Source: an uncultured Vicinamibacteraceae bacterium (lineage in GTDB: Bacteria > Acidobacteriota > Vicinamibacteria > Vicinamibacterales > UBA8438). Taken from it: DNA of 64,000 bases. This document shows, piece after piece, positions 3,573 to 48,347 of this stretch. Made by a program: the position numbers and the translations under genes. The first letter of the stretch is position 1, and each line of letters starts with the position of its first letter. Location: NCBI GenBank assembly GCA_964646815.1, contig CAZYFH010000012.1:16641-80640 (forward strand), in the 5' to 3' direction. The notes below the pieces were generated by a model, which ran no database searches, was not told the origin of the DNA, and worked only from the letters and a program-made list of their open reading frames with translations.

Positions 3573-3636
3573 CGGTTGCTGAGGTATTATCTCGACGGTG
3601 CGCGATCCGCGGGGCACGCTGTCCGGGAGGAAACCG

Positions 3637-4728
3637 ATGCGTAGAGGCGGATTCAGGACGAGCGTGGTTGGCTTGGGCGTTCTCATCGCGGCTGTCGGGG
3701 GGCCGGACGCACAGGAGGTCCAGCCGACTCGCGGATTGCGGGTGTTGGTGACGACGGCGCCCGATCGCGAGCAAGCCCTGTTCAATGCCGACTATGTGTC
3801 GATCGCAAACTCGGAGCTCCCGCTCGAGCCGATCGCACGCAGCGTACTGGCGCACTGCGGGTATGGTCCCGCCGACGGCGGCGGGTCTGTTGCCACGCTC
3901 ACGATTCGCGCGAAGGCCAACACCATCGGCGGTCAGTACAGTGACTGGCTGACGGCCTATACGGGTGCGGACCTTGAAGGAACGCTATCCTTCGTGGCGG
4001 CCGAGGGCGCGACGTTCATCTCCGCTTTCTCAGCGGTCCGGTATCCGACGCTTCTGTATCCGACCACGGCTGGCGCCGGTGTCGATGTGCGGGTACCACG
4101 GGCCGCGACGATCAACCCGGTGCTGCACGGCGACGTCAAGCGCATCCGGTCCGTGTCGGCCGTTGGCTCCCGTCCCCTGCTTGAGGGGAAGGTCTTCGTT
4201 GACGCCCTTCTGGACATCGTCCACGAGGCGTGTGGCACGGCGGGGCTCCGCCGAGCGTCTGACGACGGCGTATCGTCGTTGCGGACCGCGGCCATTCACG
4301 CGCTCGCGTCGCGCTCGGTCGGGGAGCCTGATGCACGCGAGTCGTTGCTCGCGAAACTGAACGACCCTGACCCCGCGGTGCACGGTGCGGTCGCCCAGGC
4401 GCTCTCTGACGCGGATGTGACGGCAGCGGCAGAGCCACTCCGGCGGCATTTAGCCTCCCGGCCACTGCATTACGAAGCGCGGGGATCGATGGAGCGAGCC
4501 ATCGCCCATCTGACCAACACGCCACTCGAGAGCCATGCGTGGCAGTCGCTGGCCCGATGGCACCTGATTGTGTGGGACACGTCGTCGAAGGCCGACGTTC
4601 GCGACCTGCTCGGTGAACCGGAGAGCATTGGGGGCGACGGAGAGTGGCGCTACGGCTCGGGTTGGGTTGCGTTCTCGCGTCCCGAGGATGGCGAGACCGT
4701 CACGCAGATTCGGTATCCGCACTACTAG
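3637..4728 (+). CDS. Secreted protein with HEAT-like repeats and a SmpA/BamE-like C-terminal segment
   Basis: ORF 3598..4728. ATG 3637 is preceded by GGGAGG and gives MRRGGFRTSVVGLGVLIAAVGG. DPDPAVHGAVAQALSDADVTAAAEPLRRHL is HEAT-like. The TAG stop lies inside the CTAG flank of repeat copy 1. Confidence 0.65.
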   Translation: MRRGGFRTSVVGLGVLIAAVGGPDAQEVQPTRGLRVLVTTAPDREQALFNADYVSIANSELPLEPIARSVLAHCGYGPADGGGSVATLTIRAKANTIGGQYSDWLTAYTGADLEGTLSFVAAEGATFISAFSAVRYPTLLYPTTAGAGVDVRVPRAATINPVLHGDVKRIRSVSAVGSRPLLEGKVFVDALLDIVHEACGTAGLRRASDDGVSSLRTAAIHALASRSVGEPDARESLLAKLNDPDPAVHGAVAQALSDADVTAAAEPLRRHLASRPLHYEARGSMERAIAHLTNTPLESHAWQSLARWHLIVWDTSSKADVRDLLGEPESIGGDGEWRYGSGWVAFSRPEDGETVTQIRYPHY

Positions 4729-4874
4729 TGGACTGTAACGGGTGAATCAATAGCGCTCACCAGCGCTGGACCATGTGTCAGCGCGATCACATACGGTGTG
4801 TGTAAGCTCCCTCATCGCGCCTTGCCAGCCGGGCGCCGGTGACTACTACTGATTCACCCGAGACAGGCCACTAG
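4725..4874. mobile_element. MITE-like element, copy 1 (core 4729-4870, flanked by CTAG at 4725-4728 and 4871-4874)
   Basis: Terminal inverted repeats TGGACTGTAACGGGTGAATC and (reverse complement of the right end) TGGCCTGTCTCGGGTGAATC. The core is shared with copies at 15418, 35247 and 48162. No ORF. Confidence 0.7.
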
Positions 4875-5100: not shown

Positions 5101-5450
5101 GTCGGCCACGAGTTATTGGCCGCGGATGTGGGCCGTGAGGGCTCGTCTACCAATATGAAGATACGTCGCGCGACGGCGTCCGGAGTGAAACGCACGAGGT
5201 GGTGGGCAAACTGGCGGAGGTGGGCAAGGTGGTCGTTGCAGGAGAATACGGACTCAGCAGCTCGGAGCGCAACGCGCGCGCCCTCGGCGACCTGGGCTCG
5301 AACACGGTGCGGTTGGCTACGGGAACGGTGGAATGCGGTGAGTGATCCTAGCAGCCTAGGCGGCGGGTGAACGGGGTGGTAAAGTGCCATGCGGGATGTG
5401 TAGGCGTCGCCTAGCAGATGCTTGAGCCTGAACCGAAAGGACGTTCGACG

Positions 5451-15064: not shown

Positions 15065-15417
15065 TCAGAGAGTCTGCGTCGCCGCTGCTAAGCTGTACTT
15101 GTGTACCACGACGCCACCACCATGCTCCGCGGGTTGGGCGGGGCGATCTTCGCCTCGACGGCCGGGACCTGGCGCGCGGCGGCGGCGCTGACCGCGGCCT
15201 TCCTCGTCGCTGCGCTCTGGTGGTAACCCGGTCCGGCCTGGAACGGCGAGCGCGCCCACAGCGCGCTCCGGGTCACACACAACCCGACGGCGTCGCTGAT
15301 ACCGGCGATACGCCCGTTGGGCGACCGGTTCGCGCTGGTCTGGAACGAGGATGTCCTGGCCGAGCGGGGCGACCACATCAACGGCGGCCGCTCCGAGATC
15401 GTGTTCGCCTTCGTACC

Positions 15418-15584
15418 CTAAGTGGACTGTAACAGCTCTTTGTAGAGTGATTTCCGACCGGGACGCACCGCGTGCCAGCGGTGTTCCTCGGTCACATATA
15501 CGGAACATGCTCCCTCGTCACGTCTTGCCAGCCTGGCGTCACGGCTCGGACCTCACTCCACAACTGGCTGTCACAGTCCACTAG
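15418..15584. mobile_element. MITE-like element, copy 2 (most divergent)
   Basis: Left end CTAAG+TGGACTGTAACAG; right end CTGTCACAGTCCA+CTAG (TIR 12/13). The core shares GGTCACATA..CGG...GCTCCCTCGTCACGTCTTGCCAGCC with copy 1. Confidence 0.6.
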
Positions 15585-15940
15585 CAGCCCGTGGTGAGTC
15601 CCGCATCGCGCCGAGACCGGGATGTGGCCTGCCCCCGCCCTGATAAGGCGCGCGGAGGGAGAATACTCGCCTACTTGACCGACGCGCACCGCCGTCAGGC
15701 GTCATGCAGCGCCGGTCGAGTGCAGCGCGACTTTGACCACGGGCTGCTAGGGCCCCCGATCGCCTTCGACGCCCTCGCGCCCCGGCTGATGATTCTCTTC
15801 TGTGCCAGGCCAGCTCGGACTGCCTGAAGCAGAATTCATGATTTCTTCAGGGATGCGAGGCCGTTCGGTCCAATAGACTCCGTTCCAGGTCGATCGGGTT
15901 CGCACAGGGCGAGACGCAGACTTACGAACAGTGAGGATAC

Positions 15941-35246: not shown

Positions 35247-35435
35247 CTGGTGGCCCTGTATGGCCTGTCTCGGGTGACTCAAGAGCGCTCACCGGGCGGG
35301 CGACCCCGCGCTGGCCGACGTTGGACCATACGTCAGCGCGGTCACACACGGTGTGTCTGCTTCCTCGTCGCGCCTCGTCAGCCGGGTGGCCGCGCGCCGG
35401 TGACCACGACCGATTCAGCTGATACAGGCCACTAG
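35247..35435. mobile_element. MITE-like element, copy 3
   Basis: Left end CTGG+TGGCCCTGTATGGCCTGTCTCGGGTGACTC; right end GATTCAGCTGATACAGGCCA+CTAG. The core is near-identical to copy 4. It lies between the convergent VWA and PQQ-dehydrogenase genes, and its right CTAG is the dehydrogenase stop codon. Confidence 0.7.
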
Positions 35436-37147
35436 TGGCGGGCCTCCAGTGCGAAGACGTGGAGGCCGTTGCCGGTGCGCGGACGCCGTTTCTCGGGGGT
35501 CAGTTCGGCGGGGAGCATCGTGCCCCAGCTGGCGCCGCCCACGCCGACAGGGATCGCGAGGTACTGCGTGCCATCGACGGCGTACGTGATCGGAAAGCCC
35601 TGTACGGAGTTCGGCAGCCGTGTCTGCCACAGGACCTCGCCGTCAGCCGCGTCGAAGACGAAGACGTTTCTGTCCCAGTCGCCGGCGACGGCGAGCCCCC
35701 CGGCCGTCGTCAACGCCGCGCTGTTGATCGGCGTGCGCGTCCGATGGCGCCAGACGACCTCACCCGTGCGCATGCTCATCGCGACGAACTGGCCCAGCTG
35801 GTCGGGGCTGTCCGGATGCACGTGATTGGTCCGGCGAACCGGCCCCGTGCCCCCACCGCCTTCGACTTTTTCCACAGGACCGAAGACCGCGGTTTCGCAG
35901 TTGAGGATCATCGGGATGTAGAAGATCTCAAGATCCGGGTGATAGGACATGGCGCGCCAGCTCTTGAACCCAGACGTGCTGGGACACCAGAAAATTTCCT
36001 TGCCTAGCTCCGGCACCATGCCGTCGCGGTAGGTGACCGCACCGGTGGCTGGGTCAACGTCTGCAAATGTCTGCAGGCCCATGTCGTACGCATTCCGGAA
36101 TCCTCCGGTGGCGAGGTCGAGCTCCCACAGCACTGCCATCTTTCCCATGCTGAAGACCGAGCGCTGCCCGTCGTAGTCGACGAGGATGCGCTCGAACACC
36201 TCGTCCATGTCGAGCGTTTCGGCCGGGAGGTGCTGGAAGTACCACTTCAACTCGCCTGTGTCGACGTCGAGTGCCAGGGTCGAGTTCGTGTAGAGGGCAT
36301 CGCCGTCGGTTCCGCGCGCCTCCGTCGCCCACGGTTTGGCCTGCGATGTACCGTGAAAGAGTGTCCGTGTGGTCGGGTCGTAACTCCCCGGAATCCACGA
36401 ATCGCTTCCGGCGCGGAACATCACCGGGAGATCTCCCCAGCTGTCTCCACCGCGTTCACCCGGCCGCGCGATCGTCGACGTGCGCCACGCCTCACGACCC
36501 GTGTCGGCGTCGAGCGCCACGATGTAGCAGGTGTCGTCGCGGTATTGACCGCACCCGGTCAACCCCGAGACCACCTTGCCGTCGGCGACGATGGAGCCGC
36601 TGGAGTACTGGAAGCCGGCGCCGCCGCCGACATCGGTATCCCACACGGTCCGTCCGGTTCGGGCATCGAGCGCGATGACATGCGCGTCAACGGTGTTCAG
36701 ATAGATCTTGTCCATATACATCGCGATGTTCCGGTGGATGCCGCCAGGGGGCGGGCCGCCCATGCTGCTGCCTGGCGGCACCGCGCCGCGCCGGTACTCC
36801 CACAGCAGCTCGCCGGTGGCAGCGTCCAGCGCCTGGACTGTTTCGCCGGGGTTTGCCAGATACATCACACCGTCGTGGACGAGCGGCGTCGTCTGCTGCG
36901 AGCCTTGATCCATCGCCCAACTCCAGACCAGCCGGATGGTGTGCGCGTTGTCTGTGGTGATCTGGTCGAGCGGGCTGTGGCCGTGGCCATCCAGCGTGCG
37001 GCGCCAGCTTAGCCAGTCGCCCGGGTCGGGTGTTTCCAGCATGGCGTCTGTCACAGGAGTGACGGTCGCTGCTACCTGGGCACGGCCCGCCGAGGCCACG
37101 AGCAGGCACGCACACAGGAGCGCGACGAGGGAGATGCGGGCGATCAT
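35432..37147 (-). CDS. PQQ-dependent dehydrogenase (quinoprotein alcohol dehydrogenase family)
   Basis: Signal MIARISLVALLCACLLVASAGRAQ. VTDAMLETPDPGDWLSWRRTLDGHGHSPL, and propeller repeats with W-docking motifs. Confidence 0.85.
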   Translation of the reverse strand: MIARISLVALLCACLLVASAGRAQVAATVTPVTDAMLETPDPGDWLSWRRTLDGHGHSPLDQITTDNAHTIRLVWSWAMDQGSQQTTPLVHDGVMYLANPGETVQALDAATGELLWEYRRGAVPPGSSMGGPPPGGIHRNIAMYMDKIYLNTVDAHVIALDARTGRTVWDTDVGGGAGFQYSSGSIVADGKVVSGLTGCGQYRDDTCYIVALDADTGREAWRTSTIARPGERGGDSWGDLPVMFRAGSDSWIPGSYDPTTRTLFHGTSQAKPWATEARGTDGDALYTNSTLALDVDTGELKWYFQHLPAETLDMDEVFERILVDYDGQRSVFSMGKMAVLWELDLATGGFRNAYDMGLQTFADVDPATGAVTYRDGMVPELGKEIFWCPSTSGFKSWRAMSYHPDLEIFYIPMILNCETAVFGPVEKVEGGGGTGPVRRTNHVHPDSPDQLGQFVAMSMRTGEVVWRHRTRTPINSAALTTAGGLAVAGDWDRNVFVFDAADGEVLWQTRLPNSVQGFPITYAVDGTQYLAIPVGVGGASWGTMLPAELTPEKRRPRTGNGLHVFALEARH

Positions 37148-45680: not shown

Positions 45681-46919
45681 ATGACCACACCATTCTCCCG
45701 TCGGCGTTTCCTGCAGACGGCTGGGGCGAGCGCCGCAGTCTGGGTGCCTGCGTCCGTCAACGGTTACACCACGTCTGAGGTGGCCGCCATGGCGACCGGC
45801 GAGCGCCTCGAGGTCGGGCTGTCGATGTGGGAGCTCGACACGCCCGCGCTCGTGGTCGATCTGGACGCCCTTGAGGGCAACCTTGTCACGATGCAGGAGA
45901 CCGTACGCGCCAACGGCATTGCGAGCCGCCCGCATGCCAAGACGCACAAGTGTCCCGCCATCGCACGGTTGCAGCTCGAGGGCGGAGCGGTCGGGATCTG
46001 CGTGGCAAAGATCAGCGAGGCCGAGGCACTGTTCGAGCATGGCATCGCCGAGCTGTTGATGACGACCAGCAACGTCACGCCCTTCAAGATCCAGCGGGCG
46101 ATGATGCTCCGCAAGTGGTGCGACGGGTTCATCCAGGCGACCGATACGGCCGAGAACGCACGGCAGCTGTCCGACGCGGCACAGGCGGCTGACATCGTGG
46201 CCGATGTGGTCGTCGACGTCGACCCGGGCGGGCACCGGACAGGAATCACGCCCGGGCGACCCGCGCTGATGCTCGCGCAGCTCGTTGATCGGCTGCCGCA
46301 TCTCCGGCTGCGCGGCATGCTCTGTTACGACGGCGGATCGCAACACGTCAAGGGGTTCGACGCGCGGCGGGCCCAGACGCTCGAGCGCCTGGCACCCGCC
46401 GCGGAGACGTTCGAGCTATTCCGCCGGTCGGGGCTGAACACCGATGTCTTCAGTGGCGGAGGCACGGGCACCTACAACATCGACCACGCTACCCCAGGCC
46501 TCACCGACGTCCAGGTTGGCAGTTACGTCTTCATGGATGCGCAATATTTGGCCATCGGAGGCGCCCAGGACGCCGAGCGATTCTCTGACTTTCAGCCGGC
46601 GCTGACGATTCTCACGACCGTCCTCAACGCGCAGTACGCGGGACGGGCCACCACGGACGCGGGTGCCAAGGCCTGCACGATCAATCGCCCGTGGGCGATC
46701 GTCAAAGGCGAGTCGGGGATGAGCTACACGTCGGGCTCCGATGAGTTTGGGTCGATCCGCTACGACAACCCGAGCCGAACCTACGCGGTCGGCGACAAAC
46801 TCGAGCTGATCGTGTCGCACTGCGATCCGGTCGTGAACCTCTACGACCAGATGTACGCCGTGCGCAACGGGCAGGTCGAGGCGGTCTGGAGCATCGCCGC
46901 ACGCGGCAGGTCGACCTAG
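45681..46919 (+). CDS. DSD1/D-threonine-aldolase-family PLP enzyme with a twin-arginine signal
   Basis: MTTPFSRRRFLQTAGASAAVWV Tat motif. DTPALVVDLDALEGNL..SRPHAKTHKCPAIARLQ..GICVAKISEAE (alanine-racemase-N fold). Confidence 0.8.
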   Translation: MTTPFSRRRFLQTAGASAAVWVPASVNGYTTSEVAAMATGERLEVGLSMWELDTPALVVDLDALEGNLVTMQETVRANGIASRPHAKTHKCPAIARLQLEGGAVGICVAKISEAEALFEHGIAELLMTTSNVTPFKIQRAMMLRKWCDGFIQATDTAENARQLSDAAQAADIVADVVVDVDPGGHRTGITPGRPALMLAQLVDRLPHLRLRGMLCYDGGSQHVKGFDARRAQTLERLAPAAETFELFRRSGLNTDVFSGGGTGTYNIDHATPGLTDVQVGSYVFMDAQYLAIGGAQDAERFSDFQPALTILTTVLNAQYAGRATTDAGAKACTINRPWAIVKGESGMSYTSGSDEFGSIRYDNPSRTYAVGDKLELIVSHCDPVVNLYDQMYAVRNGQVEAVWSIAARGRST

Positions 46920-47112
46920 CCACTAGTTGGACGGGTCTTCGCCCGGAAGCGCCGGCGTTCCGTGGGGACCCCCACCAGCCCATGGGGTGCGTCCGCGTCG
47001 AATACAGCGGCGCGCATCCCATCGGCTGGCAGCCTCACTCCGCGCGCGCGAGGCGCGCCGTGCGCGCCCTGGCCGTTTGCGCGTCAGTGGGACTGCGATC
47101 GGGTCGGGTATA

Positions 47113-47509: not shown

Positions 47510-48046
47510 TCAGGCGAGGGTCACCAGCGGTCGTCCCGGCTGAACCAGCTCACCGTCGCGACACGAAACACTCGTCACGCGCGCGTCGTGTGGCGCGCGC
47601 ACCGCGAGCTCCATTTTCATCGCCTCGAGTCGCACCAGCGTGTCGCCTTTGCTGACCGTGTCGCCCGTCTGTACCAGCACTTTGGTGACCGTCGCGGGCA
47701 TCGGTGCGGAGAGCGGATCGTCATCGGGGACGCGCGGCCCGACGGGTCTGGCAACGGCCGACCGCTCGACTTCCAGCGCGCGACCGGCGACCATCGCCAA
47801 GCACCCGCGCGCACCATCCATGACCAGGTGGACGAGGTGCCGCGAGCCGTCGGCAGTGACCAGGAACGTGGACGCATCGATGACGGTGATCTCGACCGCG
47901 ACGGGCCGGCCATCGACCTCGACGGCGTCATCGGAGACGACGCGCGCCAGAGAGCTCGACGATCCAGCGTGCACGAGGAGGTCGATGGGGGTCGGCATCG
48001 CTAGTAGCGCGTGGTGAAGTCCCACTGCATTCGACCGCCGATGCAT
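47510..48046 (-). CDS. Stand-alone BT/BCCP (biotinyl carrier) portion of methylcrotonyl-CoA carboxylase alpha
   Basis: C-terminal biotinyl domain PMPATVTKVLVQTGDTVSKGDTLVRLEAMKMELAVRAP. Alternative start at ATG 47998. Separated from the BC ORF by repeat copy 4. Confidence 0.75.
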   Translation of the reverse strand: MHRRSNAVGLHHALLAMPTPIDLLVHAGSSSSLARVVSDDAVEVDGRPVAVEITVIDASTFLVTADGSRHLVHLVMDGARGCLAMVAGRALEVERSAVARPVGPRVPDDDPLSAPMPATVTKVLVQTGDTVSKGDTLVRLEAMKMELAVRAPHDARVTSVSCRDGELVQPGRPLVTLA

Positions 48047-48161
48047 TCTGCCTCGCGGCGTTGCTCGTCGGTCAAGTGCTCAGTGTAATGTCTCTTTTGT
48101 CGCCTTGCGGGGCAGGCGCCTCGACGGCTTCGGTGTCACGCGGCACGTTCACCGCGGGATG

Positions 48162-48347
48162 CTTGTCGCCTGTCTCTGGTGGATGAATAGCGCTCACCGG
48201 GTGGGGCATCCCGCGCTGGCCGGCGCTGGATCATGCGTCAGCGCGGTTACAGACAGTGTATCTGCTTCCTCGTCGCGCCTTATCAGCCGGGCGCCGCGCG
48301 CCGGTGGCCACTACCGATTCACCCGACACAGGTCACTCGTGCACTAG
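48162..48347. mobile_element. MITE-like element, copy 4, inside the MCC alpha coding region
   Basis: The core AGCGCTCACCGGG..CGCGCTGGCC..GCGTCAGCGCGGTTACAGACAGTGTATCTGCTTCCTCGTCGCGCCTTATCAGCCGGGCGCCGCGCGCCGGTGGCCAC closely matches copy 3. The right end is ..GGGTGAATC-type TIR plus CTAG (48344-48347). The left end is degraded (CTTG+TCGCCTGT). Confidence 0.65.

Follow-up and report, generated by a model that had tools for sequence, protein, structure and literature searches.

The 64,000-nucleotide (nt) stretch of DNA analyzed here, hereafter called the window, comes from an uncultured Vicinamibacteraceae bacterium of the Acidobacteriota (assembly GCA_964646815.1, contig CAZYFH010000012.1, positions 16,641 to 80,640) and contains six copies of a short non-coding repeat. 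We conclude with high confidence that the repeats are non-autonomous DNA transposons, or miniature transposable elements with inverted repeats (MITEs), that insert at CTAG. The copies are small and non-coding and have terminal inverted repeats, they sit at a defined target with a duplication, they are numerous, they share their ends with autonomous elements, and they are present in one species and absent from another at the same site. A preliminary description, made from the sequence alone, had proposed a MITE-like family, and that proposal is supported by further copies in other genomes, by the extent of the similarity among copies, by the lack of a match in Rfam, by insertion sequences (ISs) with the same ends, and by empty sites in relatives. 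No description of the family was found in the searchable literature (open-access papers and preprints).

A 28-nt degenerate core, GCTYCCTCRTCRCGYCTYRYCAGCCKGG, was matched exactly four times in the window when up to 3 mismatches were allowed and was not matched in 100 dinucleotide-preserving shuffles. The four matches fall precisely on the four copies of the preliminary description (c1 to c4), all of which are present and align over their full length in a four-way alignment. A profile search, with the profile derived from a broad alignment, detected the same four copies and two more that had been overlooked (c5 and c6), giving a total of six. The further claim that all copies share one orientation holds for the listed four only, because the profile search adds c5 on the minus strand. 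The window copies are 142 to 171 nt long, and no open reading frame (ORF) is conserved among them. A short reverse-strand ORF that begins at a conserved ATGCAT was considered as a coding sequence and rejected, as it was not conserved across the arm types defined below.

The copies in the window have two kinds of ends, IS630 type in c1 to c4 and a second kind, type A, in c5 and c6, and the boundaries given here exclude the flanking CTAG. Copy c1 (4729-4870, plus strand) has the IS630-type ends TGGACTGTAAC...GACAGGCCA between CTAG sites at 4725-4728 and 4871-4874, the left of which includes the TAG stop codon of a HEAT-repeat gene (3598-4728). Copy c2 (15423-15580, plus strand) has IS630-type termini, a decayed CTAG (TAAG) on its left, and a CTAG at 15581-15584 on its right; beyond the termini its arms differ in sequence but have retained their pairing. 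The right-hand CTAG of c2 is shared with c5 (15585-15746, minus strand), which has the type A ends CAGCCCGTGG...CCACGGGCTG and a second CTAG at 15747-15750. Copy c3 (35261-35431, plus strand) has IS630-type ends, a left flank decayed to GTA, and a right CTAG at 35432-35435 that includes the stop codon of a pyrroloquinoline quinone (PQQ)-dehydrogenase gene (35432-37147, minus strand). Finally, c6 (48005-48161, plus strand) is a decayed type A copy located between the genes for biotin carboxylase and the biotin carrier, with CTAG at 48001-48004 and CTTG at 48162-48165, and it abuts c4 (48166-48335, plus strand), which has IS630-type ends and is inserted at the right-hand CTAG of c6. Immediately left of c3, positions 35247-35260 hold a partial duplicate of the c3 terminus (GTGGCCCTGTA before TGGCCTGTCTC); the CTAG expected there has lost its G, and the start previously assigned to c3 takes in this duplicate.

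As had been described, the IS630-type ends are inverted repeats, with TGGMCTGT... at the left end and ...ACAGKCCA at the right, and CTAG normally lies outside both. The two ends of c1 had been reported to match at 16 of 20 nt and were recounted at 17 of 20, while the figure of 12 of 13 for c2 was unchanged. In an alignment of 53 diverse copies a common plan was apparent, consisting of CTAG, an arm of approximately 30 to 45 nt, an interior of approximately 95 nt, the complementary arm, and CTAG. The terminal inverted repeats occupy approximately 28 nt, the interior of approximately 95 to 115 nt is non-coding, and the whole forms a long imperfect palindrome. At least a dozen arm sequence types were distinguished. 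The commonest, type A, begins with C or G followed by AGCCCGTGG, and most of the others start with TG and end with CA, a group to which c1 to c4 belong. In three type A copies (loci L006, L011, and L104), an insert of approximately 40 nt was observed, TA/CAGTGGGCGGATCGGCATGG..CCTGCCGATCCGCT/TA, which is a small TA-flanked palindrome with a Tc1/IS630-like CAGTG start and looks like a MITE nested in a MITE.

The family extends well beyond the window. A scan of one genome per species returned at least 115 loci with the core pattern, and among the 80 loci listed nearly all belong to Vicinamibacterales, Bryobacterales, or unclassified Acidobacteria metagenome-assembled genomes. Several complete chromosomes have at least eight or nine matches each. 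The window-type end, TAGTGGMCTGTNNCNGNTGAATC, was found at 120 or more metagenome loci on soil and sediment contigs, and no match to the core pattern was found in viral contigs. The species of the window is represented by contigs from marine metagenomes, and its closest relatives by two marker proteins are 83 to 84% identical. A profile search of approximately 0.9 Mb of fetched flanks detected 39 further copies, which suggests a density of approximately 1 copy per 25 kb, a value extrapolated from the flanks and inflated by clustering. One type A copy (L010) lies in a complete chromosome, NZ_OZ253579.1, that is assigned to the gammaproteobacterium Candidatus Rariloculus sp., and its presence there suggests that the element or its insertion sequence was transferred horizontally. 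Thus, the expectation that copies would be found elsewhere was borne out in both genomes and metagenomes.

Similarity among copies reaches the inverted ends and stops at the CTAG on each side, as expected of an inserted element. For IS630-type elements, the flank that was not forced by the search pattern was CTAG in 46 of 59 cases. In 7 of 7 cases with an outer base other than C at one flank, the inner base of the opposite flank remained C, which fits a TA duplication with G...C as the terminal bases of the element and not a 4-bp duplication. A passage in PMC2170065, which cites Tenzen and Ohtsubo 1991, states that IS630 prefers TA within CTAG, and the same source describes transposition of ISY100 by cut and paste. 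Among type A copies, 33 of 84 had identical 4-nt flanks, and nine of the 33 were not CTAG (GTAG twice, ATAG, CTAC, TTAG, CTAT, and others), an observation that favors a 4-bp duplication for type A.

CTAG is scarce in the window, with 59 occurrences versus approximately 200 expected from base composition or approximately 77 from a Markov model, and 9 of these occurrences are located at the elements or a putative footprint (5348-5359; see below). In three cases, the CTAG at the edge of an element includes the stop codon of the flanking gene or sits 2 nt before its start. Accumulation of copies just downstream of genes is probably explained by the scarcity of CTAG in a genome of 66% G+C and by the overlap of insertion CTAGs with stop codons. 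Moreover, each insertion leaves CTAG on both sides and thereby creates new targets, which accounts for the back-to-back pairs c2/c5 and c6/c4 and for similar tandems with other CTAG-seeking ISs in L084, L089, L004, and L070. One such IS is a third kind of CTAG-seeking element, an IS5-family IS (L089:5676-6752) with the end CAGGCTGCTGAAAAA and a 358-amino-acid transposase (NCBIfam IS5, 274 bits); in three loci (L089, L004, and L070), this IS abuts MITE copies with which it has a CTAG in common.

Autonomous elements with matching ends were found for both kinds of copy. In line with the earlier suggestion to look for an IS with inverted repeats beginning TGGMCTGT, elements of 1090 to 1104 bp were found at eight metagenome loci. 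They are bounded CTAG/TGGCCTGTAACAGCTGAATC...GTTACAGGCCA/CTAG, read CTAG/TGGCCTGTAACAGCTGAATCRGTAGT...ACTGAATC...GTTACAGGCCA/CTAG over their length, and contain ORFs of 351 to 359 codons. One representative transposase matched the NCBIfam IS630 family transposase model at 243 bits (cut-off, 100) and contained Pfam HTH domains followed by DDE_3 (HTH-HTH-DDE). The IS630-type end relevant to the window copies is GTGGMCTGTAAC..., and the eight ends of c1 to c4 match the IS630-family inverted-repeat consensus at 17 to 25 of 28 nt, including 21 on each side of c1 and 25 at the right end of c3. An IS630-like copy in L084 was initially considered as the partner but was dropped, as its second end is degenerate, and was replaced by the intact metagenome copies; a metagenome scan with the end of the L084 IS returned no match. 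In L194, four tandem TGACTAG heptamers (112-135) directly precede an intact IS630-family element and may be stacked footprints or repeated target duplications.

Type A ends belong to a different IS. A 1462-bp element (L093:1616-3077), CTAG/CAGCCCGTGGCAGAAGG...CTTTCACCACGGGCTG/CTAG, has type A ends and an ORF of 456 amino acids whose product contains the Pfam domains DUF772 and DDE_Tnp_1. The best NCBIfam match of the product was IS1182 at 155 bits, and we call the element IS1182/IS5-like because this score is below the cut-off of 270. A second copy in L075 is 66% identical and has the same ends. For both end types, the similarity between MITE and IS is limited to the ends, and therefore the MITEs are not simple internal-deletion derivatives of these ISs.

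The partner ISs also bear on a different kind of mobility, in which the copies would be palindromes resembling repetitive extragenic palindromes (REPs) or REPINs, moved as single-stranded hairpins by a RAYT or an IS200/IS605-type HUH transposase, with CTAG as the cleavage tag. REP/REPIN sequences are 20- to 40-nt palindromes with a GTAG or CGTC tag and an associated HUH (RAYT) gene, and IS200/IS605 elements have differing subterminal hairpins, no terminal inverted repeats, no duplication, and TnpA(Y1) or TnpB nearby. The element as a whole does form a hairpin whose base carries a fixed tetranucleotide, and the sequence of the arms varies while the structure is kept. However, the elements are 140 to 170 nt long with true terminal inverted repeats, CTAG is found on both sides, the flanks fit a TA duplication or, for certain type A copies, duplication of a 4-mer, and ISs encoding DDE transposases have the same ends and the same flanking CTAG. 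The associated genes, in the absence of a search aimed at RAYT, are those of DDE transposases. The terminal inverted repeats, the duplicated flanks, and the DDE neighbors and partners likewise do not fit an IS200/IS605-derived element or a TnpB guide-RNA remnant. We consider REP/REPIN-like movement extremely improbable.

Empty sites in relatives were found for four of the six copies. In L242, all eight genes of the neighborhood of c4 and c6 are present in the order found in the window, and the biotin carboxylase is 84% identical. The gap between the biotin carboxylase and carrier genes is 9 nt in L242 (TAG GGACGCGGC GTG) versus 351 nt from stop to start in the window, where c4 and c6 intervene; deletion from the window of the 344 nt between CTAG 48001 and the outer CTAG, 48344, with one of these sites included, would leave an 8-nt spacer, CCCTAGCG. 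Similarly, L243, in which a TonB-dependent receptor is 83% identical, lacks c2 and c5. A profile search detected no copy at those sites in either L242 or L243. For the PQQ-dehydrogenase gene next to c3, no syntenic relative was found. In one relative, an unrelated IS630-family element with different ends (TA/CCCGC...) was observed at the 3′ end of the PQQ-dehydrogenase orthologue (L116:5707-6730), and another relative has a paralogue. This transposase family seems to use gene 3′ ends as landing sites in general.

The preliminary description had also predicted that the elements fold into one long hairpin, and each of c1 to c4 does so at -72 to -94 kcal/mol, with z scores relative to shuffles of -5.9, -7.4, -2.8, and -2.1. 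Across the 53 aligned copies, a rod of 62 pairs was 85.9% paired versus 35 to 45% when the 3′ partners were slid by 1 to 3 columns, 44 of the pairs were changed on both sides, and the terminal helix was 90.6% paired. A small central hairpin varies in sequence and keeps its pairing (CAAAT/ATTTG, CATAT/ATATG, CACAT/ATGTG, CAGAT/ATCTG, CATGC/GCATG, CTTAT/ATAAG, and AATAC/GTATT), and an unpaired CUCC(C)UCG stretch lies on either side of it. In five loci of OZ252008.1 (L002, L003, L026, L032, and L091), one or two extra units of an 18- to 20-nt palindrome, GGACTGCGYCAGTCCGC, are present by the central hairpin and represent a lineage-specific internal expansion.

The retained pairing, with both sides of the rod changed and the central hairpin covarying between unpaired stretches, is what would be seen if the repeat were a multi-copy structured small RNA gene or RNA cis-element, in which stem and hairpin were under selection and the inverted ends were merely the closing helix. 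The arrangement of copies between genes could be taken in the same sense. With flanking genes called by a crude method based on third-position G+C and contexts taken relative to the aligned strand, 42 copies were antisense and 20 were sense between tandem genes, 22 lay between convergent genes, 13 lay between divergent genes, and 6 were apparently inside genes. Taken at face value, the 42:20 bias between tandem genes is real, but the copies are non-independent and the gene calls are rough, and both orientations and all gene contexts are represented among the copies. Moreover, rare stem mismatches in type A copies were G-T in 27 cases and A-C in 26, such that no wobble tolerance of the RNA type is apparent on either strand and RNA-level selection is not detected. 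Paired changes can also be produced by templated mutation of quasi-palindromes and by a transposase that needs two matching sites. No conserved promoter or terminator was found, and the ends and flanking CTAG are those of transposase-bearing ISs. Consistent with the absence of a known structured RNA, a search of the whole window against Rfam 15 gave no match at the gathering threshold, and one of 15380-15800 at E ≤ 10 gave only a chance-level match (E = 9.3). We therefore regard an RNA gene or cis-element as quite improbable.

One property of the family is out of the ordinary, in that one interior of approximately 95 nt is found with the ends of two unrelated transposase families. To compare interiors, a hidden Markov model (HMM) was built from the 95-nt interiors of 29 type A copies, with the arms excluded. 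The model matched the interiors of IS630-type elements that had been chosen by their ends alone (24 hits; E = 3e-16 to 7e-6), and it detected all six window copies (E = 1e-13 to 1e-5; E = 1e-13 for c2). We conclude that a common interior accompanies both kinds of ends, and the alignment of 53 copies indicated that other arm types carry it as well. The ends also accept other fillers. Of 35 short elements with an IS630-type end, 19 scored with the shared interior, and among the remaining 16 there are eight or more interiors unrelated to it. As for its degree of conservation, the loci of the genome collection were chosen with the core pattern, and the near-invariance of the 28-nt core in that set is thus partly an artifact. 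In 12 copies chosen without the core pattern, identity to the consensus was approximately equal for core (0.75 to 0.88) and ends (0.79 to 0.86), and an apparent excess conservation of the core over the ends disappeared once the ascertainment bias was removed.

The most likely cause of the shared interior is capture of abundant filler. Ends would readily take up filler, for example during interrupted gap repair after excision, and the most abundant hairpin repeat would be the likeliest filler to be taken up, such that the interior would have spread through abundance. An alternative that we judge unlikely, though better placed than an RNA gene, is that the interior is a selected cargo, such as a promoter directed outward, a site for protein binding, or a hairpin with effects on neighboring transcripts, in an element that still moves as a MITE. 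The cargo would be the covarying hairpin between pyrimidine-rich CTCC(C)TCG strands in a long rod, repeatedly fitted with unrelated ends (IS630, IS1182/IS5-like, and several other arm types). Such a module would be carried by different transposases through two acidobacterial classes and into at least one genome of the Gammaproteobacteria, and it would persist through its effect at insertion sites, for example, by providing an outward promoter or by shaping transcript ends. Detection of IS630-type interiors by the type A model, covariation of the central hairpin, and the 42:20 orientation bias are compatible with cargo, as is the presence in one type A copy (L019) of a sigma-70-like reverse-strand site, CTGACA-16-CATATT. 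That site is nonetheless absent from c1, and the overlap of its −10 element with the covarying hairpin argues that pairing and not the hexamer matters there. Furthermore, conservation of the interior does not exceed that of the ends in copies chosen without the core pattern. At least eight unrelated interiors occur between the same IS630-type ends, and the capture of filler in gap repair, driven by abundance, therefore suffices as an explanation.

Taken together, the results are best explained by mobilization in trans. Copies c1 to c4 carry the inverted repeats of an IS630-family (Tc1/mariner-like) IS, and an IS630-family transposase encoded elsewhere would bind both ends and cut the element out. 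The excised element would then be pasted into the TA of CTAG, or more broadly of YTAR, with duplication of TA; this cut-and-paste chemistry is attributed to the window elements by analogy with IS630 and ISY100. Copies c5 and c6 carry the ends of an IS1182/IS5-like IS that also targets CTAG.

Several observations weigh against this explanation. Many type A copies other than those with identical flanks mismatch at the outer base, such that the evidence on the size of the duplication, 2 or 4 bp, is mixed. As the preliminary description had stated, there is no cognate transposase in the window; tblastn with transposase queries gave no significant match (all E ≥ 0.018) in the 64 kb, and the IS630-family partners come from contigs of other organisms. 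No presence/absence difference was found within the species, and the four contigs of the same species (L238 to L241) carry identical copies. Pairing of the arms survives many double changes well inside the ends that a transposase would bind, an outcome not expected from a simple model of ends plus junk, although paired changes can arise by joint replacement of both ends, by a requirement for two matching sites, or by quasi-palindrome templated mutation, with no need for RNA function. Finally, present activity is doubtful because the window copies are old, with approximately 72% mean column identity and several decayed flanks.

Excision by cut and paste might leave footprints, and closely spaced CTAG sites were found in excess. 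Pairs of CTAG separated by 0 to 6 nt occurred 38 times in 1.4 Mb versus approximately 5 expected, as estimated from CTAG density, and their spacers often start with TG or end with CA like the element termini (TGG, TG, TGA, TGTC, CCA, and GCCA). Three such pairs lie in the window. The first, at 48336-48347 (CTCGTGCACTAG), comprises TA, terminal GTG and CAC, and TA, matches the expected CTAGTGCACTAG at 11 of 12 positions, and is possibly the excision footprint of a third element next to c6 and c4. The second, at 5348-5359 (CTAGCAGCCTAG), has the spacer CAGC, the first four bases of the type A end, and is possibly a remnant of excision or deletion. The third, at 46916-46926 (CTAGCCACTAG), lies at the stop codon of the gene at 45681-46919 and may likewise be a footprint, as its spacer, CCA, corresponds to the last three bases of the IS630-type end; a CCA spacer was also present between CTAG pairs in other loci. 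All three are suggestive only, because the exact predicted 12-mer CTAGTGCACTAG, like its 10-mer core, was found nowhere in the 1.4 Mb.

The c6 insertion also affects the annotation of a neighboring gene. The biotin carrier gene is called with a product of 178 amino acids from a start ATG inside c6 (47996-48046, minus strand; L238:4834-5370), and the called start is the conserved reverse-strand ATGCAT, with GAGG five bases upstream. The biotin carrier product of the MITE-free relative L242 (4513-4998) is 161 amino acids long. The ATG two bases after the CTAG (47998-47996) is likelier to be the original start, and the extra 17 codons are either a mis-call or an N-terminal extension derived from the MITE.

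Soils and sediments are rich in Vicinamibacteria and related Acidobacteriota, and nearly all knowledge of these bacteria comes from metagenome assemblies. A repeat at the density suggested here bears on assembly, on gene calling, and on the interpretation of intergenic regions, as the biotin carrier start exemplifies. The family also offers a clean natural case in which two unrelated CTAG-targeting transposase families share hot spots and one non-coding passenger, and with it one can test whether the interior of a MITE originates by filler capture or through selection. Should the interior be functional, it would constitute a regulatory module scattered widely through a phylum that has received little study.

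In kind, the family is ordinary, by analogy a bacterial MITE family comparable to RUP, Correia, or Stowaway elements. The repeat unit of pneumococcus (RUP), a non-coding element of approximately 100 to 160 bp in Bacillota, has IS630-like inverted repeats, a TA duplication, and many intergenic copies and is thought to be mobilized by IS630-Spn1. The window family resembles RUP in being short, non-coding, and dispersed between genes, in its IS630-like ends and TA duplication, and in its probable mobilization in trans. The two differ in that sequence and phylum are unrelated, in that RUP is tied to one IS whereas the same interior is found here with IS1182/IS5-like ends as well, and in the very marked preference for CTAG at IS630-type flanks (46 of 59). 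Correia elements (Correia repeat enclosed elements [CREE]) of Neisseria are likewise MITEs, of approximately 100 to 155 bp, with inverted ends of approximately 26 bp, a TA duplication, a long hairpin, and some promoter-like sites, and effects of RNase III and IHF on them have been shown. They share with the window family their size, inverted ends, TA duplication, hairpin folding, and promoter-like sites in some copies, and the ends are superficially alike (TATAGTGGATTAAC against CTAGTGGACTGTAAC), which may be chance. To our knowledge, no transposase partner has been established for Correia elements, whereas two partner families were found here. As in IS630 and ISY100, the partners of 1090 to 1104 bp encode an HTH-HTH-DDE transposase and are flanked by TA within CTAG; the window elements differ from them in being non-coding and have only approximately 28 nt per end in common with them. 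Stowaway MITEs of plants are mobilized by Tc1/mariner transposases and combine a TA duplication, hairpin potential, and a preference for sites near genes. The window family is similar in its TA duplication, in its ends of a Tc1/mariner-type transposon around an unrelated interior, in its strong hairpin, and in its location near genes, but the hosts of Stowaway are eukaryotic and the sequences are unrelated.

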